DNA from: a virus
Reading direction: 5' to 3' (one strand)
DNA: 64,000 bases
Virus record (IMG/VR): IMGVR_UViG_3300050821_001227
Location: 19,211 to 83,210 of that record
Within the stretch, counting starts at the first letter, position 1, and every line of letters begins with the position of its first letter. The notes under the pieces were generated by a model. That model saw only the letters and a list, made by a program, of their open reading frames with translations. It ran no database searches and was not told where the DNA came from. This document shows positions 7,512-24,418 of the stretch, piece after piece. A program made the position numbers and the translations under genes.

Positions 7512-7548
7512 AGGCGGATGCCCTAACATCCGCCTACTTTCTTTAGGG
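7512..7548 (+). promoter_or_regulatory. Hairpin/pseudoknot leader over the RBS of an HNH gene (copy 1)
   Basis: Stem AGGCGGATG/CATCCGCCT; loop CCCTAA is complementary to TTAGGG 7543-7548. Confidence 0.65.
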
Positions 7549-7557
7549 AGAAAGCAA

Positions 7558-8004
7558 ATGAGTTTAGAAACACAACGAGCCGCAAAGCGTCGTTGGAAAG
7601 CCAAACACCCAGAATGGCAAAAGCGTTGGAATGCGGAACATTCGGAGTTAGTTGCTCAAATGTCTCGCCGACAAGCTGCACACTGGAACGCTGCTCATCC
7701 CGAACAAAGAAAAGCGCAGCAGCGTAAAGATAGTAGAAAACGCAAGGCACATAAGCGCAATGCATCGGGAACTTTCACGGAGCAAGAGTTCAACATTCTC
7801 AAAACGTTTTACGGTAACAAGTGCCTTTGCTGTTTGCGTCCCGAAAGGTTGCTTAACGCTCTCGGTATACAGATTGTGCCTGACCACGTTGTGGCTTTGG
7901 CAAAAGGCGGGACTAACGATATCGGAAACATTCAACCGCTTTGTCACGGTAAAGGCGGCTGTAATAACCGCAAAGGCGTAAAGCACGAAGACTACCGAGG
8001 ATAG
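7558..8004 (+). CDS. HNH homing endonuclease
   Basis: CLCC...DHVVALAKGGTNDIGNIQPLC...CNNRKG. Confidence 0.9.
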   Translation: MSLETQRAAKRRWKAKHPEWQKRWNAEHSELVAQMSRRQAAHWNAAHPEQRKAQQRKDSRKRKAHKRNASGTFTEQEFNILKTFYGNKCLCCLRPERLLNALGIQIVPDHVVALAKGGTNDIGNIQPLCHGKGGCNNRKGVKHEDYRG

Positions 8005-8006
8005 CC

Positions 8007-8435
8007 ATGCAATCGACTGTACGCGTGAAAAGAACACAGGCAGCGTACTTTAGAAAGCTGGCCCTCGCGGAAGCAAGGAAGTCGGGCAAAGAAATTCAAG
8101 CGTACTTGGTGGGACATGTTGTCTCACCGCAACTCGTTGTTGTGGACTCGTTCCATTACACGAAGAAGTATGCCGACCAGACCACGTGTTTCGTGCGCTG
8201 GTTCGAAGACGATTATCAAGTCATCAAAGCTGCCGCAGAGGCAGCAGGCAAGCATATCATCGGTGACGCCCACAGCCATCCCGAGTGGGACGCGGTATTA
8301 AGTCCGACCGATTATATTTCGCACATTCAGGAAGGTTACCGCATCGCGGGAATCTGCTCGACGAACAAGGGCCGCACGCGGCTCCGATTCTGGGTAGCAG
8401 AGAGCGCCCTCCCCCTGAAAATAGAGTATAATTAG
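8007..8435 (+). CDS. Stand-alone JAB/MPN (JAMM) metalloprotease
   Basis: E(IQAYLVG)...IIGDAHSHP...LSPTD matches the E-xn-HxH-x7-S-x2-D motif. Confidence 0.8.
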   Translation: MQSTVRVKRTQAAYFRKLALAEARKSGKEIQAYLVGHVVSPQLVVVDSFHYTKKYADQTTCFVRWFEDDYQVIKAAAEAAGKHIIGDAHSHPEWDAVLSPTDYISHIQEGYRIAGICSTNKGRTRLRFWVAESALPLKIEYN

Positions 8436-8454
8436 CCATGCTCTGGGAGGAGAC

Positions 8455-8679
8455 ATGAAGCGCCACACACGCGATACCATCATCGCGCAGATTAACAAAA
8501 AGATAGCCAGCGGCAAAGCGAACAACGCTGAAGTCGTGTTGGTGTGGATGCGCCTCATGTTGACCGAGCCCGAAGTTTGGGGACCACGGTTCGATAAGTG
8601 GTGCACCAAATCGAACAACATCACGCCTGCCGATCAGATACCGGACAACGATCCGTATGCTGGAAACGGAGGCAGATGA
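8455..8679 (+). CDS. Hypothetical protein
   Basis: ORF with GGAGGAG RBS. Confidence 0.7.
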   Translation: MKRHTRDTIIAQINKKIASGKANNAEVVLVWMRLMLTEPEVWGPRFDKWCTKSNNITPADQIPDNDPYAGNGGR

Positions 8680-8945
8680 TGGGCGTCACGACCAAGTATG
8701 AAATCACTCGCACCGAAGTCGATAGACTCGCGCTGGAGTGGTGCAAGGCGAAGCACGTTGTCGTCATGCTAGACGATGTTGCGAGAAACTTCGCAAGAGA
8801 CATCGCGAATAAAGTTCTCCGCGACTTTGTACAGAGTATTGCAGAGATACAAGCAGCGAAAAAAGCAGCAGCTACGGGCGAACCTGCCCCGGCTGCCGCT
8901 CCCGCAGCGACCCCGACGAAACCTTCCATCATCCTGACAGATTGA
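8676..8945 (+). CDS. Hypothetical protein
   Basis: ATGA overlap with the previous gene and GGAGG RBS. Confidence 0.65.
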   Translation: MMGVTTKYEITRTEVDRLALEWCKAKHVVVMLDDVARNFARDIANKVLRDFVQSIAEIQAAKKAAATGEPAPAAAPAATPTKPSIILTD

Positions 8946-8946
8946 C

Positions 8947-9017
8947 GCGGAGCCTTAATCTAAACCTGCTCCGCATTCAAAGCGCGGGCAGTGAGTGAGA
9001 TTAAGCCTGCCCGCGCT
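8947..9017 (+). ncRNA. Candidate structured RNA: two hairpins with complementary (kissing) loops
   Basis: Stem 8947-8953/8968-8974 and stem 8981-8991/9007-9017; loop CTTAATCT (8954-8961) is the exact complement of AGATTAAG (8998-9005). Confidence 0.5.
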
Positions 9018-9078
9018 GTAGGGATTCTTATGAAGGGTTAAGTTAGAACATAAATCTGTGGATTCGCTATCTACAGAC

Positions 9079-9121
9079 GGAGGATGTCTTTCCGGCATCC
9101 TCCAAATTCTCACCGGAAGGA
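9079..9121 (+). promoter_or_regulatory. Hairpin/pseudoknot leader over the RBS (copy 2)
   Basis: Stem GGAGGATG/CATCCTCC; loop TCTTTCCGG is complementary to CCGGAAGGA 9113-9121. Confidence 0.65.
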
Positions 9122-9128
9122 GAATAAT

Positions 9129-9674
9129 ATGAACGCACGCTGCATTGATTTGGCAGGTTCAAGGATTGCCAATGGAGAGGTCGAGGTACTTAGAAAAGTA
9201 CCCAATCCAAACAGCAATACTAGCACGCAGGCATTTTGGGAATGTCTTTGCTCGTGCGGCAATGTGTTTACGACCGCAGGACAAGCAGCGCGAAGATTGA
9301 AGACTGGATGCAGACGATGCTTCGCCGCCAGAAGCAGGATTATGGGAGCAGCCCTAAGTTTCCTATTTTCGCAGTATCGCAATGAGGCGCGGCAGGCTGA
9401 TAGGGCGTTTGAGTTGACGCTTGAAGAGTTCCGAAAGCTGGTCAGCAGCAATTGTGCTTATTGTGGCTTGCAGCCGCAGCAGGTTATTAAGACTGCACAC
9501 GATGTGCTCTTGTATAACGGCATCGACCGAATTGACAGCCGAAAGGGTTATGTTATAGGCAACTGCAATCCCTGTTGCAAAATTTGCAATTACGCCAAGC
9601 ACAACAAGTCCAAAGAAGAGTTCTTGATTTGGCTAAAGCGCGCCTACGAGTTCAATTTCGGGAGTACCCTATGA
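9129..9674 (+). CDS. HNH homing endonuclease
   Basis: WECLCSCGN N-terminus; CAYCG...GIDRIDSRKGY..GNCNPCCKICNYAK. Confidence 0.88.
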   Translation: MNARCIDLAGSRIANGEVEVLRKVPNPNSNTSTQAFWECLCSCGNVFTTAGQAARRLKTGCRRCFAARSRIMGAALSFLFSQYRNEARQADRAFELTLEEFRKLVSSNCAYCGLQPQQVIKTAHDVLLYNGIDRIDSRKGYVIGNCNPCCKICNYAKHNKSKEEFLIWLKRAYEFNFGSTL

Positions 9675-10201
9675 AAGGCGTTCTCGACGGAGCGGATGGA
9701 AAGCCCGTGCTTTACGTAGGAGATGACTCTGATGACGAAGAAGCCCAGAAGCGTGGCTACGCTATACTTTCGGCCTGTAAGGATGGTGCCTACGGGCATC
9801 GTCATTTTCTAGGTTACAAAGAACGCGGAGCGCCGAAAGGCGATCACTACTTCCACGCAACGCGAGGAAAGAGGATGGTCTTAAACCTCCTCGACTTAGA
9901 AGACCCAGAGTTCATCAAGGAAGACGTTATCTTCCCGGCATTGAAGTTCATCAACAAACATCTGAAGGCTGGCGACAAAGTCCTTGTGCACTGTAATGCC
10001 GGACACAGTCGCGGCCCGACAATCGGGATGATGTTCCTCTGTACAATCGGGGAACTCCCCGGAGGCTTTCTGACATCGGAGAAGGTGTTCAGGGCGCTGT
10101 ACCCGAAGTACAATCCCAAAGCAGGTATGAGGACGTTCGCACGGGATCACTGGCAGCAACTAAAGGACAACTTCTATTATGGAACTGACGAACCTCGCTG
10201 A
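9671..10201 (+). CDS. Dual-specificity / protein-tyrosine phosphatase
   Basis: KVLVHCNAGHSRG is the HCxxGxxR active-site loop; downstream NP motif; ATGA overlap start. Confidence 0.88.
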   Translation: MKGVLDGADGKPVLYVGDDSDDEEAQKRGYAILSACKDGAYGHRHFLGYKERGAPKGDHYFHATRGKRMVLNLLDLEDPEFIKEDVIFPALKFINKHLKAGDKVLVHCNAGHSRGPTIGMMFLCTIGELPGGFLTSEKVFRALYPKYNPKAGMRTFARDHWQQLKDNFYYGTDEPR

Positions 10202-10844
10202 TCTTGCTGCGAAGTCCAGTATCGCAGCGCCTGACAAAGGCACCGCAGGCGAACTCGGAGCAAAGCAACAGAACGTGGACGAGTACAACAACGCAACCAA
10301 GCCGACGCCTACGGCAGAACCAGCGAAAGATACAACTCCCTCCCCCAAAGATCGAGTTGCCCCAAAGGCGCGATATGGAGCGCGGCCCGGAGAGAAGCGA
10401 ATCGACACAACGTCGATGACGAAACCTCTCGGCAGTTTTGAGAAGGGGACATCACATGTTCCCAAGACCGGAATCTACAAACTGCACGAAGGCGAAGCAG
10501 TGATTCCAAAGGACAAGAACATGGATAGCATGAAAGACAAGATGATGGATTCTCTCGGCGGCGAGAAAAAGCCGAAGAAAGAAATCAAAGAGATGCACAT
10601 CCGCAAGACTGCGAATGGCAAACACATCGTCACCCACAAGCATCATCATCCCGAGCATCACCCCGACGAGGAGCACTCCATGGAAGACATGGGCGCTCTG
10701 CATCAGCACATGGAAGACCACGCTGGTACGCCGAATGACGGTGAAGGCGCAGAGAGCGCACCGCCCGCAGGCGCAGCGCAGATGACAGCAGCCCCGTCAC
10801 CCGCAGCCGCACCCGCCGCTGGTGCATCGCCGACAGGCATGTAA
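10179..10844 (+). CDS. Hypothetical His-rich protein
   Basis: 221-aa ORF with LHEGEAVIP and HKHHHPEHHPDEEH. Confidence 0.7.
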   Translation: MELTNLADLAAKSSIAAPDKGTAGELGAKQQNVDEYNNATKPTPTAEPAKDTTPSPKDRVAPKARYGARPGEKRIDTTSMTKPLGSFEKGTSHVPKTGIYKLHEGEAVIPKDKNMDSMKDKMMDSLGGEKKPKKEIKEMHIRKTANGKHIVTHKHHHPEHHPDEEHSMEDMGALHQHMEDHAGTPNDGEGAESAPPAGAAQMTAAPSPAAAPAAGASPTGM

Positions 10845-10855
10845 GGAGATTTAAT

Positions 10856-11068
10856 ATGGCTGAGCACAGTCCAGAGGAAAAGGCCCATTTTGCCCGTTCG
10901 ATGCATAAATTGCACGGGGGCGCACTTCACAGACATTTCGGAATACCAGAGGGAGAAACCATCCCTGAAGAAAAGAAAGAAGAAGCCGCCAATAGTTCCA
11001 ATCCTCACGTAGCGGCCATGGGACGCATGGCGAAAGCTATGGCAGGATGGCATCACGGCAGTAAATAA
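10856..11068 (+). CDS. Hypothetical protein
   Basis: AAGGAG RBS, 70 aa. Confidence 0.7.
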   Translation: MAEHSPEEKAHFARSMHKLHGGALHRHFGIPEGETIPEEKKEEAANSSNPHVAAMGRMAKAMAGWHHGSK

Positions 11069-11088
11069 GCCATCGCATCGGAGGATGT

Positions 11089-13182
11089 ATGGCTGGTGAA
11101 CTGGAGATTCTACAGGCTGAGTTTGTAGCAGCCTTCCAGAACAAGAACTATCAACACAAAGGAATGCCAGAAGATGAGTACGACACTCTGGCATTGACGG
11201 CATTTGGTCACTACACGAATAAGCAGCAGTTCGATGCGATGCAGTCGTGGGTGATTTTCAATGGCGGAAAGCGCAAGGCTGGACTCCCGGCTCCCGGCAG
11301 TTGTGAATACGATCATCTGCGGCTAACGGTTGCGCGTTATCGCTTCATGTGCCAGACGAACCTGTTCTTCCTTTGCAAGATGTTGGGTTACTCCAAAGTC
11401 ACCGACAGAGAGTACAACTGGTTCAATCCCCAGACAAAGGGTTGGGAGACGCACAACACGCACGAGGAAATCTGTAACGAGTTCTTTGTGCCGAAAGACC
11501 CGGCGCACTTCGCCACCTTCGAAGCGTTCGCGACCGACGCGACCGCGAAGAGAATGTACAAGCAGCGATTGCTGCTCGTTCCTCGTGGCGGATTCAAATC
11601 GTCCATCAACATGGCCGACTGCGTTCAGTGGATTCTGTGTTTCCCTGAAGTCACCATCGGCATCTTGACTGGAAAGTTAGGATTGGCTGAAGACTTCGTC
11701 GGAGAAGTCAAGGCGCACTTCACCCTTGATGAGAACTTCGAGAAGGACAGCGAGTACAAGGGCTTCCGCCCGCGACTCCTGACAAACAAGTTCACAGGCG
11801 CTCAAACCGTATCTATGCTTCAGGTGTTGTTTCCCGAGCATTGCGTAAAGCCTCAAGAAGGCAAAGCCACTGAGTTCCAGACACCCGCCGTCACGGCTGG
11901 TGACAAAGAGCCAACGATTCGCGCTACAGGTATTGAGCAGTCATTGGCTGGATCACACTTCTGCTTACTGAAGCTGGACGACGTGGTCACCGAAGAGAAC
12001 GTTGAGACCGTAACCCGCATTGAGGGCATCAATCACCGCATCGGTGTTGACAAAGCCTTGATGCACGCATTCGGTTTCTTCGACGTAATCGGTACGTGGT
12101 ACGATGAGAGAGACTACTACGGTAAGCAAATCGCTTACGACGACAAGTTGTTCTTGGCTTCACAGCGCAACCCGGCGATGAAGATTTACCGCCGCGCTGT
12201 ATGGTGGCCAACCGCCGAATGCTTGGCGGCTGGTAAGATTGAGTCCGAGTGGACTGAACAAGACGTACATCTCTGGTTCCCCGCAGTTCTAACGTTCGAC
12301 TTGATGAAAGCGTCGGCGATGACGGAGCCCGATGTATTTGCCATCAAGTATCTGAACGATCCTCGTCAGATCAACAAGATTAAGTTCCCGCGCGAACTCT
12401 TGATTCGCCGCACGATTAACCATAATCTGTGCCCGCATCAAGGCATGATCGTTACGACCGTGGATACGGCCTACTCGACGCAGAGTTGGGCAGACTATAC
12501 CGTCATCATGACGGCAATCATCCATGGCGGGAGATTCTACATCATCAACATGGTGCGCGGAAGGTTCAACGAGTACGAACTTCCAGCGGTCATCGCGACT
12601 GTCGGGTATAAGTGGAAGCCGAAGCAGATCATCATCGAGGAGGTGATGGGCACTGCATTCGTCAAACGCGAAATCCGGCGCGAGATGGAAAAGCTGAAGA
12701 TTAGTATTCCGCTCCGTAGCGCAGGTCTGGGTCAAGGCAACAAAGCCAGATCGAAATCCATGAAAGCCAAGCCAGTCCTGAGACTGCTTGGCGACCAACG
12801 CATGTTCTTCGTCAACTCTTGTGAAAGTCTCGAAGAAATTTATACCGAGATGTCTCAGTTCACTGGGACAGCGGACGACAAGCATGACGACATCATCTCA
12901 GCAATTTCTCTGCTGGCTGAGGTCTTCGCGCCGTACGCGGACATGCACTCACAAATTAACGCGGTTGAAACTTCGTACGCGGCGGACGCGCAGTCTTACG
13001 AGCATCACCAGATGATTTACGGTCTGGGTAAGTACGCTCAACAGAATCCGGCCTTCGCAACGGATGACAACCCGAACACGCAGTTTCAGTTAGAGCAGGC
13101 CGCGCAGGCCGTTGAGCAGTCCGACGATAATCCGTTGGATGACTTGTTCGGCGGTGACCGTGCGCTGAAGACGGTGATCTGA
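11089..13182 (+). CDS. terL: Terminase large subunit
   Basis: Walker A-like PRGGFKS, Walker B LLKLDD, IGTWY, nuclease VDTAYS...DY and HDDIISA; located upstream of the portal. Confidence 0.9.
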   Translation: MAGELEILQAEFVAAFQNKNYQHKGMPEDEYDTLALTAFGHYTNKQQFDAMQSWVIFNGGKRKAGLPAPGSCEYDHLRLTVARYRFMCQTNLFFLCKMLGYSKVTDREYNWFNPQTKGWETHNTHEEICNEFFVPKDPAHFATFEAFATDATAKRMYKQRLLLVPRGGFKSSINMADCVQWILCFPEVTIGILTGKLGLAEDFVGEVKAHFTLDENFEKDSEYKGFRPRLLTNKFTGAQTVSMLQVLFPEHCVKPQEGKATEFQTPAVTAGDKEPTIRATGIEQSLAGSHFCLLKLDDVVTEENVETVTRIEGINHRIGVDKALMHAFGFFDVIGTWYDERDYYGKQIAYDDKLFLASQRNPAMKIYRRAVWWPTAECLAAGKIESEWTEQDVHLWFPAVLTFDLMKASAMTEPDVFAIKYLNDPRQINKIKFPRELLIRRTINHNLCPHQGMIVTTVDTAYSTQSWADYTVIMTAIIHGGRFYIINMVRGRFNEYELPAVIATVGYKWKPKQIIIEEVMGTAFVKREIRREMEKLKISIPLRSAGLGQGNKARSKSMKAKPVLRLLGDQRMFFVNSCESLEEIYTEMSQFTGTADDKHDDIISAISLLAEVFAPYADMHSQINAVETSYAADAQSYEHHQMIYGLGKYAQQNPAFATDDNPNTQFQLEQAAQAVEQSDDNPLDDLFGGDRALKTVI

Positions 13183-13412
13183 TGAGCGATATAGAAATCA
13201 TACCCGCGAATCCGCCGATCAACTCGGCGCGTATCAACCAATCGCGAGTCATCAACACTACGCTGTCTCTACGGGACCGCAGACAAGAACCAGTAGTCAT
13301 CCCGCCTCCTCCGGTTGACGAGAAAGTAGAAGTGCTGAAGGTACAACGACGGCACTTCGTAGCACCAGAGATAAGCGCACCGGAGCAAGTATTCCGGCGC
13401 ACCCGGCGCTAA
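13182..13412 (+). CDS. Hypothetical protein
   Basis: TGATG overlap with terL. Confidence 0.6.
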   Translation: MSDIEIIPANPPINSARINQSRVINTTLSLRDRRQEPVVIPPPPVDEKVEVLKVQRRHFVAPEISAPEQVFRRTRR

Positions 13413-13430
13413 CTTAGGGAAAGGGGGCGT

Positions 13431-15560
13431 ATGGCTCAGTTACCAATCGATGGAAATCCAAATCGCGCCCTCACTGAACAGGACTATAAGGTCTCTGGAG
13501 AGTTGAAGTCCGACGCGGCAGCGGTAGCCCTAGTCAACGGTTGCGCAACCGCAGCCGAGCAGTTTATTTCGAACAAGCAGTGGAACCTGCTGTGGCGCGA
13601 TAGCGATCTTTTGTATCAATCGCCGCGTCCTATGTCGGTGTACGAGAACACGTACATCTTGGAACCGAACGTTCAGCGGTTCACGGTGGCGAAGGTTGTG
13701 AACGCAATCGTCCCTCAGCTTTACAAGGGACTGTTCTACGACGATCCACCGATGTTAATGCGGCCTATGCCGGGAACTGAGCAAGCTGAAGTTGACGCCA
13801 AGACGGCGGTCTTCTCCTACTTGCTGAACGCTTGTAACTTCAAGCGCAATACCAAGTGGGGACTTGAACAGATGGCCCACCTTGGAACGGGCGTCTGGAA
13901 GTGGGGAATCCGCTATGAGAAAATAGTCGTCAAGACTCGTAAGCCAACCGTCTATAAGGACGGCGACAATCCGGCAGTGCCAACGTTCGATAAACCGGAC
14001 ATTGAGAGAAAGATTCGAGTTGTGCCGCGACCGTTCTTCGAGTGGCGTCCGCTCGACAAAGTATTCTTTGATCCAAACACGCGAGTGGGCGATGCCCGCG
14101 AAGCGCGATGGGCAATCGACATCCGCAACCTCGACTTCTATGAAGTCCTTGCGATTAAGAGAGCCATCGAAGGTCTACCCGACGATGCGGAAGAACGCAA
14201 GGGTTGGATGTGGCCGGGAGATGGTTCCGACAGGGCTCTACAGCAATTGTGGATGCCGCCAGTCGAACAAGGTGCGATTGAGTTGATGTCTGACTCATCC
14301 ACCCATGTCACAGAGATTGTCCACCATTCATTGGACGATTCACAAAATTCCACGCCGGATATTCTCCGACGCAAGATGGAGTTGCTGGAGTATTGGGACA
14401 AGGGTCGCAAGATCATCGTCCTCGACCGCAAGAAAGCGATTTACACTGGCAAGAATCCGTTCGCCGAAATCGGTATCGAGAACTGCATTCCGTTCCTTTC
14501 CGCCAACTGGTGGAACCGCCCGAAGGCGTTTTACGGAATGGGCCTCGGTCTAATCGTTGGTCAGAACCAGCGCGTAGATCAGGGTACGATCAACTCGATC
14601 CTGAAGATATTGTCATTTGGTGTCAACCCAATCTATCTGCGCCGACGCGATTCCAATACGCCAACACAGATGATTCGAACAGGTATCGGGCGAATCCTCA
14701 CCGTTGATGTTAAAGAAGGTCGGCCAGTCGGCGATGCTTACGGCATCCTCGAACAGCCGAAGGTGCCATCCGAAGTCTGGGCAGCACTCAGTGAATCTGA
14801 AAAGAACACTGAGTCTACATCAGGCGCAGATGCGCAGTTGGTGCAAGGTAGCAGCGCTGGTCCCCGCAGTTCGATGGGCCGCACTGCAACAGGAGCCTCG
14901 CAACTCGGCGCAGCAAGCGCAACTCGGTTGGACGGTCCTCTCGATAACTTCATCGAGCAGGTGTTCACGCCATTCTTGTACATCTTGGACGACTTGGTTG
15001 AAGAGTACCTTTCCGATGGTGAGATTCACTTCATCTGCGGAGAAGAGTTGGGCAAGGCATACATGCTCAACTTGGCACGGTACCACGAAGCCAAGATGGA
15101 GTTTGAAGTGCTGGCGGGCGCAAGCCTTTCCGCCAAGCGCATCATGGCTCAGTCCCTGACGCTCATCACGCAAATATTTGAGAACCCGCAGATTCAACAG
15201 AACCTCGCGGAAATCAACGGAGAGTACATCGACTTCAAGCCGATACTCTCGATGTGGATGGAAGCGTCGGAGTGGAAGAACCGCAACGACATCATCAAGA
15301 AACTTACGCCGGAAATGAAGCAGGCTCAACAGGCAAAGTCAGCGCAGGCACAGGCAAACAGCAAGCTGCAAGCGCAACAGTCTTTGAACACGCAGAAGTT
15401 CCAGCAGAAACAGCAGTTAGAGGACCAAGCGAACCAGAACCGCGTACAGCGGGACATTGTTCGTGAGTCTTTCCGCAACTCGGCCATGAGCGAAGCAGTT
15501 ACAGGACAGCCAAGCGCAGGCGGCTTGGAAGGTTCCGCTGAGACAGGCTCAGTTGTGTAA
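13431..15560 (+). CDS. Portal protein
   Basis: 709 aa after terL; GTGVWK, FFDP, ELLEYW, FYGMG and RTATGAS motifs; Gln-rich C-terminal barrel. Confidence 0.88.
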   Translation: MAQLPIDGNPNRALTEQDYKVSGELKSDAAAVALVNGCATAAEQFISNKQWNLLWRDSDLLYQSPRPMSVYENTYILEPNVQRFTVAKVVNAIVPQLYKGLFYDDPPMLMRPMPGTEQAEVDAKTAVFSYLLNACNFKRNTKWGLEQMAHLGTGVWKWGIRYEKIVVKTRKPTVYKDGDNPAVPTFDKPDIERKIRVVPRPFFEWRPLDKVFFDPNTRVGDAREARWAIDIRNLDFYEVLAIKRAIEGLPDDAEERKGWMWPGDGSDRALQQLWMPPVEQGAIELMSDSSTHVTEIVHHSLDDSQNSTPDILRRKMELLEYWDKGRKIIVLDRKKAIYTGKNPFAEIGIENCIPFLSANWWNRPKAFYGMGLGLIVGQNQRVDQGTINSILKILSFGVNPIYLRRRDSNTPTQMIRTGIGRILTVDVKEGRPVGDAYGILEQPKVPSEVWAALSESEKNTESTSGADAQLVQGSSAGPRSSMGRTATGASQLGAASATRLDGPLDNFIEQVFTPFLYILDDLVEEYLSDGEIHFICGEELGKAYMLNLARYHEAKMEFEVLAGASLSAKRIMAQSLTLITQIFENPQIQQNLAEINGEYIDFKPILSMWMEASEWKNRNDIIKKLTPEMKQAQQAKSAQAQANSKLQAQQSLNTQKFQQKQQLEDQANQNRVQRDIVRESFRNSAMSEAVTGQPSAGGLEGSAETGSVV

Positions 15561-17405: not shown

Positions 17406-17463
17406 AGAACTCCCGTTGTATCTCTCTGGGAGGAGAGTGAACAACAGAAAGATTGGATAATTT

Positions 17464-19431
17464 ATGACGGGTTATAGTCCCGCAATTAACAATCAGTCGA
17501 ACCTCCCGCAATCGACTGTGAAGTATTCATAGTACTTCTCCCTAGCATTCGATTGCGTAGTAAATGTATGACAAGAAGTTCAGGGAAAACTTGAAGGCCC
17601 AGACTCCCTTCGTGGCTTGTTCAGAACGTTTGGATTTGCCGATGAAGTCTGGTAACCAGTATGAGATTTCAGAAACATGATAGTCCCATACAGTTTAAAA
17701 TCTTGCTAAATCGGTGAAGGTCTGTTAAAATCAGATAATACCGAGGAAACTTGTGAAACGAAAGACAGCACAGTACATGGCGGGACTTATGGACGCGGAA
17801 GGAATGTTCGACATCGAACGTGCCTTCAGAAGCGATGATAGGAACTGCTACAACTATACCGTAAAGATTGTGCTTACCAATACAAATATTGCCCTGATGA
17901 AGTGGGCCGTTAAGTACTTTGGGGGCGTTTACAAAAAGCGCAAACCTGAGGTTGGTAAGAAACAAGCTTATGATTGGATAATCTCTAATCAGAAGCACGG
18001 GCTGTCGTTCATCTCCCAAATATTTCCGTTCCTTGTGGTCAAAAGAGCAGAAGCACAAACGTTAGTTGACTACTATGCCATGTATGGCAAAGAGTTTCCA
18101 GAACGACGTGAACAACTGTTCTTCAAAAACAAAGAATTGAAATGGGACAAAAGTTCCGTAACGACTGACATGCAAGATATCTCTAATGCTTATGCGGCAG
18201 GGTTTGTAGATGGCGACGGGAGTATAGACACTCCGCACCGTTTAGCAGTATCCAACGCATGCAAAGTCTTGATTGATTTGTTCAAAGCAACGTATGGCGG
18301 GTCGTATTATTTGGATGTCCGTGAGGAACCAAATCAAAACGATTCTCACGTGTGGTATCTTTCTAATCCTACAAAGGTTGAAAAGATAGTGCTTTCGTGG
18401 CTGCCATACTTGATTGATAAACATCATCGAGGCGAACAGGTGCTAAAACGCCTGCGAGATAAAGATACAGTCTGAACTAACGGGCGACCGTTAGAGTGAA
18501 CCTGACGGAAGTCAGGGTTACGAAGCCGTTCTGGTTTCGTATTCATCCAAAACACAGTTGGTTCATGTACGTTCCGTTGGCAGCCAACACTTCGACCACC
18601 GTTGAAGGAACCGTTGGGACTTCCATTCCGGTCAGCGTGCTGAACACCACCGCTGTCATCGGCGAATACGCCGACTACGCTAACTTCTCCTCGCTGTCTT
18701 TGGCCACTGCCATCGACAACACCGTCGAGAACGTCGCGAAGGAACTGTCGTACCGCTTGGGCGAGTCTTTGAGCGCTCTGGTTCGTGCGACCGCAGACGG
18801 CGCGTCCGCCATCGACTCCAGCGTGCTTGTTGAACTGGGTGCTACCAGCACTTCCAGCTTCACCGCTCTGTCTTTGAGCCAAATCCGTAACTCTGTCCAG
18901 TCTCTGGCAGGTCGTTCGGTTCGGCCCTTCGATGAAGCAAGCAAAGCATTCTGCGGTGTCATCCATCCGTTCGCCCTTGGCGACGTTCTGGCTGACAACA
19001 GCAACGATTCGCCGCTCGACATGTTGAAGCACACCCCCGTGGGTATGGCCAAGATGGAAGAGTTGGTGAGCGTTGATCTGACCGAGGTCATTGAATTGCC
19101 CGCTTCTGGCGTGCATTTCTTCCAGACCAACCAGATCACCACGACTTCGAACTATCAGACTGTCACTGGTCTGACGGCTCTCCGCACCTACATCTTCGGG
19201 CGCGATGGTATCTACTCCATCAACCTTGGAGCACAGGGCGACACCGGGTTCGGCGACGGTGAATGGCAGAACATTAAGTGCAACATCAAGCAGAACGTTG
19301 AACCCAGCGTTGCTGACCCCGAAGGACTCATCCCCGGATGGACTTCGTATCGTGTGCACTTCACCACGTCTCTCGGACCTGACACGACCATTCGCCAGCG
19401 CCAGATCGACGCGGCTAGCGCCATTTCCTAA
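17464..19431 (+). CDS. Major capsid protein (N4-gp56-like), three exons: join(17464..17526,17567..17667,18561..19431), 344 aa
   Basis: The join restores MTGYSP...TVKY|YDKKFRENLKAQTPF...LPMKSGNQYE(M)FMYVPL...EGT...EYADY...GVIHP, matching the family pattern YYDKK...LP..SG...F..Y..L; position after the scaffold gene. Confidence 0.85.
17527..17566 (+). other. 40-nt core-less group I-like mini-intron in the capsid gene
   Basis: Splits KY|YDKK, contains an in-frame TAG and shifts the frame. Exon GAAGTAT pairs with GTACTTC (P1, U.G at the junction), TCATA pairs with 3' exon TATGA (P10), and the insert ends in G. Confidence 0.7.
17668..18560 (+). mobile_element. Group I self-splicing intron (893 nt) with LAGLIDADG ORF
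   Basis: P1 GTATGAGAT/GTCCCATAC with U.G; P3 ATCTTGC 17700/GCAAGAT 18172; P4 TCGGT/ACCGA; P6 GGAAACTT/AAGTTCC; P7 GACTG 18163/CAGTC 18468; P8 TATCTC/GAGATA; S element AAAGATACAGTC; P9 TAACGG-GCGA-CCGTTA; P10 ACATGA/TCATGT; terminal G. Removal restores the frame. Confidence 0.92.
17753..18475 (+). CDS. Intron-encoded double-motif LAGLIDADG homing endonuclease
   Basis: YMAGLMDAEG and YAAGFVDGDG motifs; FPFLVVK and LPYLIDK; lower GC than flanking genes. Confidence 0.9.
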   Translation: MKRKTAQYMAGLMDAEGMFDIERAFRSDDRNCYNYTVKIVLTNTNIALMKWAVKYFGGVYKKRKPEVGKKQAYDWIISNQKHGLSFISQIFPFLVVKRAEAQTLVDYYAMYGKEFPERREQLFFKNKELKWDKSSVTTDMQDISNAYAAGFVDGDGSIDTPHRLAVSNACKVLIDLFKATYGGSYYLDVREEPNQNDSHVWYLSNPTKVEKIVLSWLPYLIDKHHRGEQVLKRLRDKDTV

Positions 19432-19439
19432 AGGAATCT

Positions 19440-19910
19440 ATGGCACTAAAAAACGTACCCAAGTCTCCTGAGCACCGCGCCAAGCTTATTCAAGTTTTGG
19501 AGCGTACTTGGGAGAATAGACCTAACAAGCACAAGATTCAAGCGATTGATAAAGTCGCAATGACTGGCTGCTGTGTCACCTGTGGTCAAGTTCCTTTGAA
19601 AGTAGTACGTCATCGGAACAACAAGCAGGGATATGTTAGAGACCAGTATCTATGCTGGGTCGGTTCGCTACGAAGCGGCGAAGCACAAGTTTCCTATGCG
19701 GGTCAGGCACTAGAAATGCTTGACTCGCAGAAGGGTAACTGCGCTTTGTGCGAACAGCCTCTTGACCGTTTTGACATGGTTTTAGATCACGACCATGAAA
19801 CGAAACTCATTCGCGGGTTTCTTCATCAAAACTGTAACAAAGGGCTAGGCATGCTTGGAGATAATCCGAGCATTCTCAAACGAGCCATCGACTACCTAAC
19901 AAAGAAATAG
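19440..19910 (+). CDS. Endonuclease VII-type homing endonuclease
   Basis: QKGNCALC...LDHDHET..IRGFLHQNCNKGLG..GD. Confidence 0.88.
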   Translation: MALKNVPKSPEHRAKLIQVLERTWENRPNKHKIQAIDKVAMTGCCVTCGQVPLKVVRHRNNKQGYVRDQYLCWVGSLRSGEAQVSYAGQALEMLDSQKGNCALCEQPLDRFDMVLDHDHETKLIRGFLHQNCNKGLGMLGDNPSILKRAIDYLTKK

Positions 19911-19929
19911 ACAACGAAAGGACATCAAC

Positions 19930-20487
19930 ATGGCAGATACACAAGAATCGTATCCTACCCCGACTACGGGGAAAAACCTGCCTCTCTTCATGGAACTGTC
20001 GGGTCAGGGCGTAACGAACGCCAACCCTCAGACGGGTTCGGGCGCTTTGGTCGGTGGAAACAACACCTACAAAGTCACCCTGTCCGTTGCCAATTCCCAG
20101 AAGGCGAATGTGTCGGCGACCGTTGTTGTGACGGTGAACTTGTTTGACCTTGCGGGAACTGCGCAAGGCATCAAGAGTTCCGTTACCGCAGTGTCGTACA
20201 ATGCCGCTCCGACCAGTTCGAGCGGGACGCAGGAATCGTACCCGGCCCCTCTCACCACCATTGGCGAGATTGCGACCGTGGGAACGGTGTCGTACTCAGC
20301 TTCGGCTGGCACGGCCACCATTACCCCCATCACTCCGGGGCAAGCAGTTGTGGAGTTCGAGTATCCGTTCGGTCTGAATGCGAACAACACCGCAGCCGTC
20401 GAACCGGGGCCGCAACCCGGTGGCGCTCTCGGGTTCCAGCAGAACGACATGGTGTACTCCCAAATCCTAGTCCAAGTTATCCCTTGA
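19930..20487 (+). CDS. Putative capsid decoration / Ig-like virion protein
   Basis: Beta-rich T/S/V/A composition; follows the capsid gene; TQESYP occurs twice. Confidence 0.55.
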   Translation: MADTQESYPTPTTGKNLPLFMELSGQGVTNANPQTGSGALVGGNNTYKVTLSVANSQKANVSATVVVTVNLFDLAGTAQGIKSSVTAVSYNAAPTSSSGTQESYPAPLTTIGEIATVGTVSYSASAGTATITPITPGQAVVEFEYPFGLNANNTAAVEPGPQPGGALGFQQNDMVYSQILVQVIP

Positions 20488-20531
20488 GGATTTGGGATTC
20501 ACAAGATTCACAGACGTTATAAACCTGTGGA

Positions 20532-20568
20532 GAGGGGCTGTTCGAGCAGTCCCTCACTTCTTCTCGAA
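20532..20568 (+). promoter_or_regulatory. Hairpin/pseudoknot leader next to the RBS (copy 3)
   Basis: Stem GAGGGGCTG/CAGTCCCTC; loop TTCGAG is complementary to CTCGAA 20563-20568. Confidence 0.65.
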
Positions 20569-20577
20569 AGGAAGTAC

Positions 20578-21042
20578 ATGAAACACGAAACAGAAGCAGA
20601 ACGTTTGGCGTATAACGCCTATTACCGAAACTATCGCAAGCAGTGGTCTCCTGAGATGAAGGAGAAAGAACGGCAGCGTAAGCGAGATTGGATTGCAGCA
20701 CATCCAGAGCAGCATCGTACAAACACTCGTCGTGCTGCGCGAAAGCGCCGGATTATAATTCAAGCGCATCCCGAGTTTCAAAAAGCAGCACAGGTTCAGT
20801 TCAACCATTCAATAAGTCTGGAAGAATATGAATGTAGGCTGCGCGACCAAGGCGGCATTTGCCGTCTTTGTAATAAGCCGTTCACGGACGATAATCCTCC
20901 CGTGCTCGACCACAATCACGACACTGCGCAGTTGCGAGATTTTATCCATCGGCAATGTAATGCGGCTCTTGGATTATTTAAAGACAGTGTTGAGGTTTGC
21001 AAGTTGGCCGCTGAATATTTAGAGCGGCACAGTAGAGGATGA
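20578..21042 (+). CDS. Endonuclease VII-type homing endonuclease
   Basis: QGGICRLC...LDHNHDT..LRDFIHRQCNAALG.FKD. Confidence 0.88.
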   Translation: MKHETEAERLAYNAYYRNYRKQWSPEMKEKERQRKRDWIAAHPEQHRTNTRRAARKRRIIIQAHPEFQKAAQVQFNHSISLEEYECRLRDQGGICRLCNKPFTDDNPPVLDHNHDTAQLRDFIHRQCNAALGLFKDSVEVCKLAAEYLERHSRG

Positions 21043-21062
21043 ATCTCTGGGAGGAGAAGATC

Positions 21063-21365
21063 ATGGACGGTGAGGAGTACGTCATGGCGCAGCAGATTAT
21101 TGCTGGCCAAAAAAGTTTGGTTGTACAGGCGTTAGAAGAAACGGTCGAAGAGTTGCGCGGCGAGATTGAGTTTCTTAAAGAGGAAAACAAGCGGCTGCGA
21201 AATGTTTCCAAAGCAACGCGCATGACCAACCGCAAGGTTAGAGCCGACGTGAAGGCTTTGGTCGATCAAGTCGAAGAGATGGGACAACATATCATGGACA
21301 TCGCCGTCGAAGAGGCGGCACAAGAGGATTTGGGCAGCACGTCCGCTTCGGAACCGACGACTTAG
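21063..21365 (+). CDS. Hypothetical coiled-coil protein
   Basis: ATG 21063 follows TCTCTGGGAGGAGA; heptad pattern. Confidence 0.65.
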   Translation: MDGEEYVMAQQIIAGQKSLVVQALEETVEELRGEIEFLKEENKRLRNVSKATRMTNRKVRADVKALVDQVEEMGQHIMDIAVEEAAQEDLGSTSASEPTT

Positions 21366-21536
21366 CCATCATACGAATCGTCAGTTCATGGTTGGACACA
21401 AGGACACGTACACGAAGGCCAAGGGTACGGCGTCGGTCGGCACCTGTTGTGGGAAGTCATGAGCCCCGGAGGACCGATTCTCAAATAATGGCGTAAGGCT
21501 CTAATTCTTAAGAGCCTGCTTAGGAAGAGGAGCCTA

Positions 21537-22253
21537 ATGCCATCAAACAAAGATTTATTGGCGCAACGCGCCGAAGAACAAGCAGAGTTCAACAAGCAGG
21601 TTGACCTACTGCCGATGCCCGAATTGACAGATGAACAAATTGCTCGTACCCAAGGGACGAGAAAGTCAGAAAAAGCCCCGTGGGAGACTTATAACGAGCA
21701 GATGACAGAGACGCTTGACCCGGAGCTAGAAGCGGCCATCGCAGAGTTCGCTTCGCATGACCCGCACGGGCACACCGATTCCCAGACGCAAGAAGAACTC
21801 TGTCGAATCAAAGAAGAGAACGACAACCTCGCACGGGACTACCAATGGTTGAGTCCGGACGAGTACGAAGATGAGAAGGCCCGCATAGGCCGCATCATGC
21901 ACTCCTCGGAGCTAATCAAAAAGCTGACCGAAGAATGCCGTTTGAACGCACGGTACAAGTCCCACCCACAGCCAAAGCGTATCACGCTTCTGGTTGATAT
22001 TACCCAAGGCATAAAAGGCATGGAAGTTGCCTGTTGGGTACAGTTCGGGTACATGCCAGAGTTCAGCATCTGCAATTTCGATGACCACGGAGTTGTATTG
22101 CAGGAGGCATATCGCGGCTGGCGCACAGTGTTGCTCCAGTTGCTGGTCAAACGCATGATTGACGAGGAAACAATCAATCGCGTGTTCGGAGAAGCGGTTG
22201 GTCCGGCATCAAGGAAATATAACCAACTCGTGCAAGGATTTAGAAAGGGCTGA
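21537..22253 (+). CDS. Hypothetical protein
   Basis: 238-aa ORF with GAGGAG RBS. Confidence 0.75.
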   Translation: MPSNKDLLAQRAEEQAEFNKQVDLLPMPELTDEQIARTQGTRKSEKAPWETYNEQMTETLDPELEAAIAEFASHDPHGHTDSQTQEELCRIKEENDNLARDYQWLSPDEYEDEKARIGRIMHSSELIKKLTEECRLNARYKSHPQPKRITLLVDITQGIKGMEVACWVQFGYMPEFSICNFDDHGVVLQEAYRGWRTVLLQLLVKRMIDEETINRVFGEAVGPASRKYNQLVQGFRKG

Positions 22254-22264
22254 GGAGACCCCAT

Positions 22265-22945
22265 ATGAGCAACGTCAACAATCAAGAAGATATCAACGAA
22301 GTACACAAAGTAGTCGCAAAAGTCATCAAAGAACAGACCCCGGCACAAGCCGAGCGCGTCGAAATCGTCCGAGCCATATCCGAGATGTCCACGGAGGAAA
22401 TCAACCGGGAACTGGCGGCGAAAGAACTGCAACTGAAGCGCCTCGAATTGATGGAGCGCGAAGCCAACTTGGAAGACATCCGAGAACGTCTCGCGGACCG
22501 CAAGCTGAAGCGTAAGAGCCAAGGCGATGTGTTCCGTGGCCACGGTCAGAACCTGAAGCAGGGTGCGATTAACCGCGTAGCGAAGCAGACGATCTGTAAC
22601 CACCGCAAAGGTGGAGACGGCGCGAATGGCGTCATCGGCGGACAAGGCGATGACATGCAGTACGCGATTCTGCGGCACATCATGGGCAATGGCGACATTT
22701 GGATTCGCTGCCTGCGCTGCGGCAAGACTTGGAAGCGACCGCTTCTGAACGGAAGAACCGAAGCCGAAATGAAGGCTTCAGCGGAATGGGCCGAGTACGA
22801 TTTGATGCTACGCGCTCAGACCCGAAACCACACGTCAGGCACGCATACGTTCCAATGGGGCGTAGTGCAAAATGCCGAGACAGGCAAGTTGGAAGGCGGG
22901 CCAGAGTTCTACAGAGAGAAAATGAAATCTGTGACTTTGGAGTAA
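22265..22945 (+). CDS. Hypothetical protein (coiled coil plus CxH...CxxC Zn motif)
   Basis: CNHRKGG...CLRCGKTW. Confidence 0.75.
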   Translation: MSNVNNQEDINEVHKVVAKVIKEQTPAQAERVEIVRAISEMSTEEINRELAAKELQLKRLELMEREANLEDIRERLADRKLKRKSQGDVFRGHGQNLKQGAINRVAKQTICNHRKGGDGANGVIGGQGDDMQYAILRHIMGNGDIWIRCLRCGKTWKRPLLNGRTEAEMKASAEWAEYDLMLRAQTRNHTSGTHTFQWGVVQNAETGKLEGGPEFYREKMKSVTLE

Positions 22946-22960
22946 TCGCCCACGAAGTAA

Positions 22961-22997
22961 AGAGGGATGGGCACAAACGCTCGTCCCTCTATTTTTT
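22961..22997 (+). terminator. Intrinsic terminator
   Basis: AGAGGGATGGGC/GCTCGTCCCTCT stem followed by ATTTTTT. Confidence 0.7.
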
Positions 22998-23009
22998 ATT
23001 GGAGACAAC

Positions 23010-24341
23010 ATGACAGGTCAAAATTCCACCATCACGCTACAAGATATTTCGGACCAAGCGAGTTCCTTTGGAGACATAGCTCCCGCACTGGCAACAGGCG
23101 GTTACTCGACGCAGCCCGCCCAAAGCATCGCGAACGACGTGATGACGGCATTCCTGCAAGGTACAGGGGACGGCAACCCGTTCAACTGGAAGTTCAACAG
23201 CTTCAACGTCACACCGTTCTACACGATTAGTCTTCAGCAGGACTATTTCGTACCCGGCGTCGTGAACTTGGGCTGGCTCGAATCCTCGTATGCGATCAAC
23301 ATCAACCAGACGAGCAATCCGAAGCAGAAGTTGTATCAGGAAGTTCACCGTGCGGAGGAAGTCACCTTCGACCAGACAGGATACCCCGGCAAGATTTGTT
23401 GGATGCAGAATGATACGATGCAGTCAGGTACATGGGGACAAACGCAGTTGGCGTCACCCAGCGGCCTGCTGAACCCCGGCGTAGGAGTTGAGTATATCAA
23501 CCCGGCTGGCGCTCCGCAGAACCCGACCAACCCGACAACCTGCATCACGGACCCTTACGGCAACCTCTGGGCTGTGACGTTCGGTGTCAATCAGGCAACC
23601 GCGACATGCGGAACCTTCAATCCGTTCAAACCTATTGTGACGGCGACTTCGGTCACCAGCAATGTAATTACGGTCACGGCGCAGCACAGTTTGTCTGTCG
23701 GTACGCAGGTCAAGCTGCAAGGCACCGCCGAGTCTGGCGTCAACGGCCAACTGTTGACCATCGCTACTGTCATCGGAAGCGCTCCTAACTACACAGGCTT
23801 TACGGCAGCGCTGACCATCGGCAACTACAGCAACGCTTCAGATACGGGCAATGTTCAGATCGTGCCCGCATACCCGGTGTATCAGGCCGGGAATCCTTCA
23901 GTCTCTAGCACCGTGGCGACCACGGTTGCTGATGGCACTGTTGTTTGGACAGCGGTCAACCCAAAGGGTCAAGGATTCAGATTGAGTCCCATCCCTCCCA
24001 ACAGCGGAGTCGTTTGGCAGGTCAACCCGGTCGCGCAGATGCGCGTACCGCGCTTCAGTTCGATGCAGCAGACTCTCGAACCGATTCCTGATGACTGGGA
24101 GATGTTCTTCAAGAACGGCTTCTACGCACAATGCTATCGGCACAGTCCGGACCCGAAGGTTCGTCTGAAGTTCAAAGACGAATGGGCGCTGTTTATGCAG
24201 TCGCTCGACAACGCAGTCAAGCAAGGACAGCGTGAGACAGACGATTTTGGATTTTACCCCGGATCACCGGGCGTTATGGACACTGGGTTTTGCATCAATC
24301 CTGTTAATCCCGCGTGGCCGTACGGCCCTTATTGGGGCTAG
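23010..24341 (+). CDS. Putative head-tail adaptor / tail tubular protein, paralogue 1
   Basis: Position in the tail module; helical N- and C-termini around a beta-rich insert; shares motifs with 28488..29441. Confidence 0.6.
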   Translation: MTGQNSTITLQDISDQASSFGDIAPALATGGYSTQPAQSIANDVMTAFLQGTGDGNPFNWKFNSFNVTPFYTISLQQDYFVPGVVNLGWLESSYAININQTSNPKQKLYQEVHRAEEVTFDQTGYPGKICWMQNDTMQSGTWGQTQLASPSGLLNPGVGVEYINPAGAPQNPTNPTTCITDPYGNLWAVTFGVNQATATCGTFNPFKPIVTATSVTSNVITVTAQHSLSVGTQVKLQGTAESGVNGQLLTIATVIGSAPNYTGFTAALTIGNYSNASDTGNVQIVPAYPVYQAGNPSVSSTVATTVADGTVVWTAVNPKGQGFRLSPIPPNSGVVWQVNPVAQMRVPRFSSMQQTLEPIPDDWEMFFKNGFYAQCYRHSPDPKVRLKFKDEWALFMQSLDNAVKQGQRETDDFGFYPGSPGVMDTGFCINPVNPAWPYGPYWG

Positions 24342-24379
24342 TGTGGTATAATATTATCGCAGTGTCGCACATTGCGGTA

Positions 24380-24418
24380 GGGAGCACGACTTTCAACGTG
24401 CTCCCGTTCTTTTGAAAG
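24380..24418 (+). promoter_or_regulatory. Hairpin/pseudoknot leader next to the RBS (copy 4)
   Basis: Stem GGGAGCACG/CGTGCTCCC; loop CTTTCAA is complementary to TTGAAAG 24412-24418. An extended -10 (TGGTATAAT) lies upstream at about 24344-24352. Confidence 0.65.

Follow-up and report, generated by a model that had tools for sequence, protein, structure and literature searches.

Four endonuclease genes of an uncultured soil phage are each preceded by an RNA leader in which the loop of a hairpin is complementary to a stretch at the ribosome-binding site (RBS). The window, the whole stretch of DNA that we analyzed, consists of 64,000 nucleotides (nt) and forms the last 64 kb of the 83,210-nt phage record IMGVR_UViG_3300050821_001227 in IMG/VR. 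We consider it fairly probable that each leader belongs to, or is closely related in design to, an uncatalogued family of cis-acting RNAs that brakes translation in free-standing homing-endonuclease cassettes of uncultured soil-type phages. The leaders have a common structure, its helices covary, it is associated with nuclease genes and it lies inside the inserted cassette. Most likely, they would hold translation down as a brake.

All four leaders lie on the + strand and follow the same order: stem, loop, stem, pyrimidine linker, loop complement, then 7 or 9 nt and ATG. The first hairpin (H1) is G+C-rich and has 8-10 bp. Its stem (S1) has at least 8 bp, is G+C-rich and ends 16-35 nt 5' of the start codon in each leader. 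The loop complement (S2) is 6, 9, 6 and 7 nt long in leaders 1-4, with at most one G.U pair, and ends 9, 7, 9 and 7 nt before the ATG. In leaders 1, 2 and 4, S2 reaches into the 5' part of the Shine-Dalgarno (SD) sequence; the S2 of leader 3 only abuts the SD. The first-pass annotation had placed four such leaders at 7512, 9079, 20532 and 24380, and all of them are present on the + strand at these coordinates. It had also described an extra hairpin just upstream of each leader, and RNAfold predicts this hairpin (H0) in all four cases. A purpose-written scan of the + strand recovers exactly leaders 1-4. The parts of the four leaders, including an alternative hairpin (H2) formed by linker and SD, are as follows.

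7463..7505, + strand: H0 of leader 1, in the minimum free energy (MFE) and centroid folds of 7449-7575 (RNAfold)
7512..7535, + strand: H1 of leader 1; S1 7512-7520/7527-7535, 9 bp; loop CCCTAA 7521-7526
7543-7548, + strand: complement TTAGGG of leader 1, after linker ACTTTCT; then 9 nt and ATG 7558
7537..7554, + strand: alternative hairpin H2 of leader 1, CTTTCTT/GAGAAAG; contains TTAGGG 7543-7548 and the SD GGGAG
9055..9077, + strand: H0 of leader 2 (RNAfold)
9079..9103, + strand: H1 of leader 2; S1 9079-9086/9096-9103, 8 bp; loop TCTTTCCGG 9087-9095; in the MFE fold, 10 bp and a 5-nt loop
9113-9121, + strand: complement CCGGAAGGA of leader 2 (one G.U), after linker AAATTCTCA; then 7 nt and ATG 9129
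9106..9125, + strand: alternative hairpin H2 of leader 2, TTCTCA../..GGAGAA; contains CCGGAAGGA 9113-9121 and the SD AAGGAG
20507..20531, + strand: H0 of leader 3, with GTTATAAAC in its loop (RNAfold)
20532..20555, + strand: H1 of leader 3; S1 20532-20540/20547-20555, 9 bp, one G.U; loop TTCGAG 20541-20546
20563-20568, + strand: complement CTCGAA of leader 3, after linker ACTTCTT; then 9 nt and ATG 20578
20556..20575, + strand: alternative hairpin H2 of leader 3, ACTTCTT/AGGAAGT; its loop is CTCGAA 20563-20568 and its 3' arm is the SD AGGAAG
24344..24352, + strand: extended -10-like TGgTATAAT upstream of leader 4, identified by eye; absent from the list of the promoter scan (weak -35)
24355..24379, + strand: H0 of leader 4 (RNAfold)
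24380..24405, + strand: H1 of leader 4; S1 24380-24388/24397-24405, 9 bp; loop ACTTTCAA 24389-24396
24412-24418, + strand: complement TTGAAAG of leader 4, after linker GTTCTT; then 7 nt and ATG 24426
24406..24423, + strand: alternative hairpin H2 of leader 4, GTTCTTT/AAGGGAAC region; contains TTGAAAG 24412-24418 and the SD

The genes behind the leaders encode nucleases.

7558..8004, + strand: HNH endonuclease gene, 148 amino acids (aa) (Pfam HNH, 1.4e-5)
9129..9674, + strand: EndoVII/HNH-superfamily nuclease gene, 181 aa (PHROG 1035 'endonuclease VII', 8.6e-20; PHROG 3118 HNH, 2.6e-12)
20578..21042, + strand: Endonuclease VII (EndoVII)-type gene, 154 aa (Pfam PF02945, 1.8e-13)
24426..24923, + strand: EndoVII-type gene, 165 aa (Pfam PF02945, 1.1e-22)

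The leaders had been said to serve two nuclease families, HNH and EndoVII. Pfam bears this out for 7558, 20578 and 24426. The 9129 product has no Pfam match, and its assignment comes from PHROG 1035. The same annotation had pointed to the endonuclease genes at 19440, 38125 and 50748 as leaderless, and each of them indeed abuts an upstream stop and has no leader.

Within the record, the architecture is far more frequent than in shuffled sequence. We searched the whole 83,210 nt with criteria fitted post hoc to the four leaders (stem of at least 8 bp, loop 6-9 nt, linker 5-10 nt, complement of at least 6 nt, at most one G.U). On the + strand 34 hairpins qualify; a loop complement follows downstream in 4 of them, namely leaders 1-4. 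On the - strand this holds for 1 of 33 hairpins, which mirrors leader 1. Dinucleotide shuffling (100 rounds) gave 0.3 instances on average and never more than 2: at least one occurred in 25 shuffles and none reached 4. The refuting outcome named in the first-pass annotation, an architecture as common in shuffled sequence, was not seen in this test. Three non-nuclease genes in the record have such a hairpin (one outside the window, 23010 and 35275), with loop complements of 3, 3 and 4 nt. These tests used an exact-stem scan. An Lfold-based detector misses leaders 2 and 3 because the MFE pulls loop bases into the stem.

Three further places were judged not to be leaders. At 21496-21526, before an open reading frame (ORF) at 21537, a stem of 7 bp is followed by a linker of 3 nt and an S2 of 6 with a G.U; we take this for chance, since 3 nt of linker are too few to bridge the stem. 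The other two, 8939-8974 and 20148-20181, do not precede a start codon. The first of these, at the end of ORF 8598..8945, is a 7-bp hairpin (one G.U) with a 9-nt loop and a 7-nt complement 6 nt downstream.

The same design occurs in related phages. Among IMG/VR relatives of the HNH protein, the leaders differ in sequence and are alike in design. We examined four long related records whole (G001-G004; the phage of the window is G000). Clean leader instances number seven in G001 and two in G004, all directly before an ATG, and the whole-record scan of G002 and G003 returned no instance. The nine ORFs behind the G001 and G004 leaders comprise four EndoVII, three HNH, one NUMOD3 and one 9129-type gene. 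One G001 leader, at 26316, was picked up by the Lfold detector and is absent from the stricter table. Leaders precede 4 of the 7 nuclease-like genes in the phage of the window, 7 of about 13 in G001 and 2 of 8 in G004. The leaderless nuclease genes of these three phages abut the upstream gene, with the exception of G004 48159. This EndoVII gene follows TTGACA and a simple 12-bp hairpin, TCTTCTCCTATT/AATAGGAGAAGA, in which the SD is buried (G004 48060-48160), which is the classical design.

Single genes can be followed between these records. The HNH protein of 7558 has a relative with 43% identity in G001, likewise behind a leader, and the 20578 product is 42% identical to that of G004 36509, which has a leader of its own. 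Relatives of the 9129 gene were found in G001, G003 and G004. For the 24426 protein the search for related loci gave no relative.

The leader lies inside the inserted cassette. G004 is syntenic with the phage of the window across the structural genes. In G004 a leader and its EndoVII gene (27496-28015) stand between the orthologues of the window genes 9575..10201 and 10179..10844. These two genes overlap each other in the window, and because the G004 leader and gene separate them, the leader belongs to the cassette that was inserted. Only 12 nt lie between the upstream stop and H1 of this cassette. At the same locus (G004 27485-27510), the TAA stop of the upstream gene falls within the H0 loop.

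A second line of evidence for exchange comes from one particular loop. The leaders at G001 628 and G004 36509 have the loop CCTAGAA and the S2 TTCTAGG in common, and their S1 stems are unrelated. We searched IMG/VR with the pattern CCTAGAA-N13-25-TTCTAGGAGA and obtained 82 stretches, of which 80 loci (L106-L185) were counted and two (L186, L187) left out. The 80 loci contain 87 pattern matches. In 31 of these an S1 of 6-15 bp directly flanks the loop, compared with 0-3 bp in the remaining 56. The stemmed matches lead to 28 ORFs, for which Pfam gives 15 EndoVII, 2 GIY-YIG, 2 NUMOD3 and 1 SegE. When Pfam, phmmer and PHROGs are combined, 27 of the 28 are nuclease-like. Behind the stemless matches, none of 17 ORFs matches a nuclease family. 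As the first-pass annotation had suggested, the module is portable: it was inserted between overlapping genes in G004, and an identical loop precedes EndoVII, GIY-YIG/NUMOD3 and 9129-type nucleases.

A further test disregards loop pairing when it selects hairpins. In 1.35 Mb, we took every perfect stem of at least 8 bp with a loop of 5-10 nt whose end lies 16-35 nt before an ATG or GTG, and required an ORF of at least 90 aa and an SD-like word. This yielded 113 cases, with L186 and L187 included. A loop complement of at least 6 nt was found at 44 of 46 nuclease-like genes, at 3 of 67 other genes and in 9 of 598 cross-pairs of loops and regions. When the pattern-fetched CCTAGAA loops are taken out, the nuclease-like genes still have it in 23 of 25 cases. 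Two of the three other genes have endonuclease-like N-termini by eye. The 1.35 Mb were gathered through nuclease relatives or the CCTAGAA pattern and are not a random sample of phage genes; a gene was labelled 'nuclease' if phmmer gave E < 1e-5 against a reference set to which the 28 ORFs downstream of CCTAGAA leaders also belong. In this sample, other genes are not equally frequent hosts (44/46 against 3/67). A table of the genes downstream, another check proposed at the outset, lists EndoVII, HNH and GIY-YIG/NUMOD3 nucleases among the relatives.

The position and the sequence of the pairing are constrained. S2 ends 6-10 nt before the start in all 44 cases, and at its junction with the SD, GG is followed by AGA or AGG in 34 of them. 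There are 25 different loops that follow CC-NNNN-A, with partners U-NNNN-GG and then AGA or AGG. Leader 1 (CCCTAA/TTAGGG) fits this scheme; the loops of leaders 2-4 differ in sequence. We do not define the leaders by the conserved CTAG immediately 5' of H1, as only 11 of the 44 cases have it.

Chance, or a feature of the DNA such as an operator, a recombination site or a cruciform, is an extremely unlikely explanation of these leaders. The scan criteria were fitted to four cases, and pyrimidine-rich loops facing purine-rich SDs do raise the background (18 of 240 cross-pairs in the ascertained set have a complement of at least 6). Against this stand the shuffles, none of which reached four, and the 44/46 to 9/598 of the test above. 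The G.U pairs fit the + strand transcript only. Furthermore, inverted repeats that interleave (A-L-A'-L') mark a pseudoknot and not a protein operator. Soil metatranscriptome contigs contain RNA of this phage; as contigs they indicate presence only. They are spliced, so they represent real RNA, and one of them (8663-9186) spans leader 2.

It had also been suggested that an RNA travels with the nuclease and binds it. The data do not support this suggestion: the same loop and S2 serve unrelated families, and we saw no unpaired nucleotides that are conserved and could make up a site for a protein or ligand. A leader that is the partner of its nuclease, as a bound cofactor, guide or autoregulatory operator, is very unlikely. 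The leader does travel with nuclease genes, and I-TevI autoregulates, though through DNA binding. However, the identical CCTAGAA loop and S2 occur before EndoVII (15), GIY-YIG/NUMOD3-type (7, counting L116) and 9129-type (3) genes. The helices vary freely apart from the SD-related CC/GG, and the element is only about 45 nt long and sits on the RBS.

Both helices covary. For S1, 28 distinct stems of at least 6 bp show compensatory changes in 12 of 12 pairs; 88% of cells are paired, compared to 40-54% when the strands are slid, and none of 500 shuffles scores as high. For both helices together we aligned 17 rows with pseudoknot brackets, selected for a loop length of 7 and an S2 of at least 6; three of the rows are one column out of register and were retained. 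Compensatory changes occur in 8 of 8 pairs of S1 and 6 of 7 pairs of S2 (14 of 15 in total), with 94.5% of cells paired against 40-54% slid, and again 0 of 500 shuffles is as high. The covarying pseudoknot that the four leaders had suggested is borne out by these double changes in relatives. Judged by this comparison of sequences, the pairing of loop and RBS is a real, conserved pseudoknot helix.

The folding predictions add a second structure. RNAfold predicts three tandem hairpins, H0-H1-H2, for each leader (z = -4.3, -2.5, -2.7 and -5.0 for leaders 1-4). H2 is predicted in all four and consists of the pyrimidine linker paired with the purines of the SD, 6-7 bp in this phage. The loop complement sits in the loop of H2, or partly in its stem in leader 1. 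The linker had been described as short and pyrimidine-rich. It is both, but it is more than a spacer: in the RNAfold prediction it is the 5' arm of H2, with the SD as the 3' arm. Predicted energies are -5.0 to -5.4 kcal/mol for H2 in the four leaders (leader 1 tail fold -5.4) and -6.5 to -14.1 kcal/mol for the loop:S2 duplex (RNAduplex; -7.6 in leader 1, -14.1 in leader 2). The RNA is therefore predicted to have two ways of masking the SD, the loop:S2 pseudoknot and H2.

We treat the two as alternatives because the 0-2 nt between H1 and H2 preclude a full kissing helix with both stems. On the same geometric grounds, we rejected simultaneous kissing of the H1 and H2 loops: 0-2 nt cannot join the stem ends of a coaxial loop-loop complex. 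The leader RNA is probably either a pseudoknot or a twin hairpin, and not both at once.

As a brake, the leader would work as follows. The G+C-rich H1 would present an anti-SD-like loop, usually 5'-CC-NNNN-A in relatives. This loop would pair with 6-9 nt that enter the 5' half of the SD (usually 5'-U-NNNN-GG followed by AGR) to form an H-type pseudoknot whose end lies 6-10 nt 5' of the start. In doing so, it would mimic the 16S anti-SD (CCU...). Because the 16S anti-SD needs the same G residues, pseudoknot and 30S would compete for them and nuclease translation would be held down. Once the pseudoknot opens, the C/U-rich linker could pair with the SD purines as H2 and serve as a second lock. 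A brake fits the plain SD hairpin of the neighboring cassette at G004 48159. It also fits the documented RBS masking of homing-endonuclease genes (PMC3014915).

Several results weigh against this reading. First, the motif is not general. It occurs at just 3 of 80 diverse EndoVII loci (L016, L050 and, marginally, L009), so that it is enriched in one lineage and not universal. L009 was excluded as a member, as its S2 has 8-9 nt but the gap is 15 and the linker 3; L018:2148 was also excluded, since it precedes an 80-aa ORF without a Pfam match. Second, the geometry is tight. Fully paired loops of 6-7 nt leave no nucleotide for crossing the S2 groove, and where S1 has 12-15 bp, a linker of 4-6 nt has little slack. 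The complete pseudoknot may thus be strained or only partly formed. Third, the grip on the SD varies. In leader 2 and L050, almost all of the SD lies within S2, but S2 takes only 2-3 nt of the SD core in most relatives, and in leader 3 it covers no SD nucleotide, where H2 alone would mask the SD. Occlusion by the pseudoknot alone may be mild. Fourth, the complementarity behind H2 is largely compositional, with a mean of 3.91 pairs for a leader's own strands and 3.11 for crossed ones. Finally, pseudoknots in the toxin mRNAs timP and tisB activate translation (PMC11295053).

The scores of a covariance model also count against this reading. This model, R1, was built from 17 relatives without any window sequence; it encodes S1 and sequence, not the pseudoknot. 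Run on the window, it finds leader 1 (7513-7560, 23.5 bits, E 4.7e-5). Leader 4 is borderline (13.2 bits, E 0.044), and leaders 2 (9.2 bits, E 0.6) and 3 (6.5 bits, E 3.8) are not significant. By sequence, leader 1 appears to be a member of the family, and leaders 2-4 share its design. The top match of R1 is a terminator-plus-SD at 22964-23012 before the non-nuclease gene 23010 (E 3.2e-5). R1 is not specific, because a model without the pseudoknot rates this terminator no lower than leader 1. What sets the leaders apart is the pseudoknot pairing and not the nested fold.

The match before 23010 is of interest in itself. At 22961-23012, a 12-bp G+C hairpin is followed by a T-run and GGAGACAACATG, before the 443-aa gene at 23010; this is the best terminator-like site. 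The downstream complement of its loop is 3 nt only, which makes it a useful negative control. In 6800-25600 we counted 23 terminator-like sites, compared to 21.4 expected, which is no overall enrichment. H1 of leaders 4, 3 and 1 rank second to fourth among the 23, and leader 2 fails the scan. A promoter scan of the same region reported no site within the leaders. A metatranscriptome contig (19257-20527, depth 14.6, a single run) ends in H0 of leader 3, 5 nt short of H1. The contigs of X3 give little or no cover in the bins after leader 3 (20662-21903) and over most nuclease genes, a cover that cannot rank expression.

These data could mean that H1 mainly marks the end of a transcript, as a terminator or 3' stabilizer of the upstream late operon, or as a 5' stabilizer or insulator of the cassette mRNA, with loop pairing secondary. 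We regard this as unlikely. The high ranks of three H1 hairpins speak for it, the contig end before leader 3 is a hint from one run, and R1, blind to the pseudoknot, cannot tell a true terminator-plus-SD from leader 1. However, terminator-like sites are not enriched, and the linkers of relatives in G001, G004 and others are not U-rich (AACCTAC and CGACCT, for example). A transcript end also leaves two things unexplained: why the variable core of loop and S2 changes in a compensatory manner, and why the distance to the start is fixed at 6-10 nt. Where such a hairpin does precede a non-nuclease gene, at 23010, its loop complement is 3 only.

A more serious competitor keeps the pseudoknot and reverses its sign. 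The pseudoknot would then be the translation-competent form and H2 the off state: loop:S2 pairing would free the linker or offer a standby or S1-docking platform, and so activate or time synthesis. We find this doubtful, though it has several points in its favor. The AGGAAG of leader 3, buried in H2, would stay accessible in the pseudoknot, and in most relatives S2 ends 2-3 nt into the SD core. Activation by a pseudoknot in the 5' untranslated region (5'-UTR) is established for timP and tisB (PMC11295053). By eye, several relatives have TTGACA-N17-TAnnAT directly before H1, which would put the pseudoknot at the 5' end of a monocistronic mRNA. IncI-alpha repZ and rpsO offer precedents. On the other hand, in other phages H2 is weak (of the 12 tabulated relatives, 11 have tail folds between -0.7 and -5.1 kcal/mol; L016 has -7.2), and its complementarity is barely above cross-controls, which leaves little to relieve in most members. 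The conserved CC of the loop pairs with the SD's own GG, and in leader 2 and L050 S2 covers almost the entire SD.

Tentatively, we also put forward a broader version. Each leader may be a self-contained, exchangeable two-state translation switch that moves among cassettes independently of the nuclease. Pseudoknot and linker:SD hairpin would alternate, and one of the two would be an 'on' state reached at a set time or by a trigger, as in timP and tisB, so that synthesis is gated and not just damped. Free variation of the 4-nt loop core would stop cross-pairing within a genome.

Some features of the relatives' leaders were noted by eye or in passing. The promoter-like TTGACA-N17-TAnnAT ends a few nt 5' of H1 at L114, L115, L141, L146, L162, L123 and L163/L183. 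At L114, L115, L141 and L146, the spacer of this promoter contains a near-palindrome of the ACACGGGTTGCAACCTGTGT type with an operator-like look. The H0 loops of relatives are often self-complementary (CTAATTA, TTTATAA, TTCGAA); in the window only H0 of leader 3 (GTTATAAAC) is similar.

Side observations in the window concern genes rather than leaders. The inventory of endonuclease genes given by the first-pass annotation can be extended by two EndoVII-like pieces. An ORF of 106 aa at 25035-25355 (PF02945 positions 23-74), 111 nt 3' of the 24426 gene and with neither leader nor evident SD, may be a truncated second EndoVII copy. A short frame at 52722-52853, which follows tRNA-Asn and tRNA-Ala, has a match to the C-terminal half of EndoVII alone (PF02945 positions 38-81, E 2.1e-14) and looks like the remnant of a decayed endonuclease gene. 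In a PDB sequence search, the 9129-9674 product matches TAL-effector repeat proteins at E about 1e-5 with no passing stretch, and its sole nuclease match is PacI (E 0.015); the TAL-effector matches are probably compositional. In the capsid gene, two insertions (17526-17567 and 17667-18561) are removed in RNA: metatranscriptome contigs join across them, with 40 nt and 893 nt skipped in X3 and the 893 nt in X4. The larger insertion contains a 240-aa ORF (17753..18475). A megablast of 7000-21500 against a phage collection gave one weak match, to the portal gene of a Tunturiibacter phage (74%), which is uninformative on the leaders.

The leaders are an uncatalogued design within a known kind, the RBS-masking leaders of homing endonucleases. 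At gathering score, a cmscan of the whole window against Rfam 15 reports two tRNAs only, and at E <= 10 nothing lies over the leaders in 7300-9300 or 20300-24600. The comparison with Rfam, proposed earlier, hence yields no family that overlaps the leaders even at the permissive threshold. Our literature search found no description of a pseudoknot leader before homing endonuclease genes.

Known RNAs share parts of the design. In the rpsO (S15) operator and the IncI-alpha/IncB repZ/repA leaders, a loop pairs beside the SD and hairpins are in equilibrium with a pseudoknot, as we propose here. Those pseudoknots need a trans factor (S15, or leader-peptide translation and antisense RNA), are conserved within one gene family and are not leaders of mobile elements. 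The preQ1-II and SAM-II/V riboswitches form H-type pseudoknots whose 3' strand includes SD nucleotides, as in the leaders here, but riboswitches retain conserved unpaired nucleotides in the ligand pocket. Across the leader members, no such pocket nucleotides are conserved unpaired: the loops pair end to end (L1 = 0-2, L2 = 0-2) and the cores vary freely.

The closest comparison is with the T-even-type hairpins. RBS-masking hairpins are documented for I-TevI, I-TevII, I-TevIII, mobE (Aeh1) and segB, and have been shown or implicated to lower translation initiation (PMC3014915). Both systems place a cis RNA structure over the RBS of an intron-encoded or free-standing homing endonuclease. H2, as predicted for leaders 1-4, and the simple 12-bp hairpin of G004 48159 are of the same type, with the SD in one arm. 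The T-even-type structures described there are simple hairpins, some containing a late promoter, in contrast to the conserved, covarying pseudoknot between loop and SD edge found here. Unlike them, the present leaders are common to cassettes of several nuclease families and absent from Rfam. With timP and tisB the leaders share a harmful product, an SD masked by co-transcriptional folding, and alternative conformers that include a 5'-UTR pseudoknot (PMC11295053). In timP and tisB the pseudoknot activates and an antisense RNA controls (PMC11295053), whereas here the pseudoknot includes SD nucleotides and no antisense partner was found, though no search was aimed at one.

What recurs before EndoVII, HNH and GIY-YIG/NUMOD3 nucleases in many uncultured phages is a compact, covarying pseudoknot within a mobile cassette. 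Homing endonucleases are selfish nucleases, and their expression must suffice for spread without hurting the phage. To our knowledge, the only documented control of homing endonucleases is the simple RBS hairpin of T-even phages. If confirmed by experiment, the leaders would bring a new, widespread family into the RNA catalogue and provide a sequence signature for locating free-standing endonuclease cassettes and their borders in metagenomes. They would also represent a small, portable and tunable translation lock of about 45 nt, with a programmable 4-nt core and no trans factor evident. Whether such a lock is a brake or an activating switch would then become a directly testable question.

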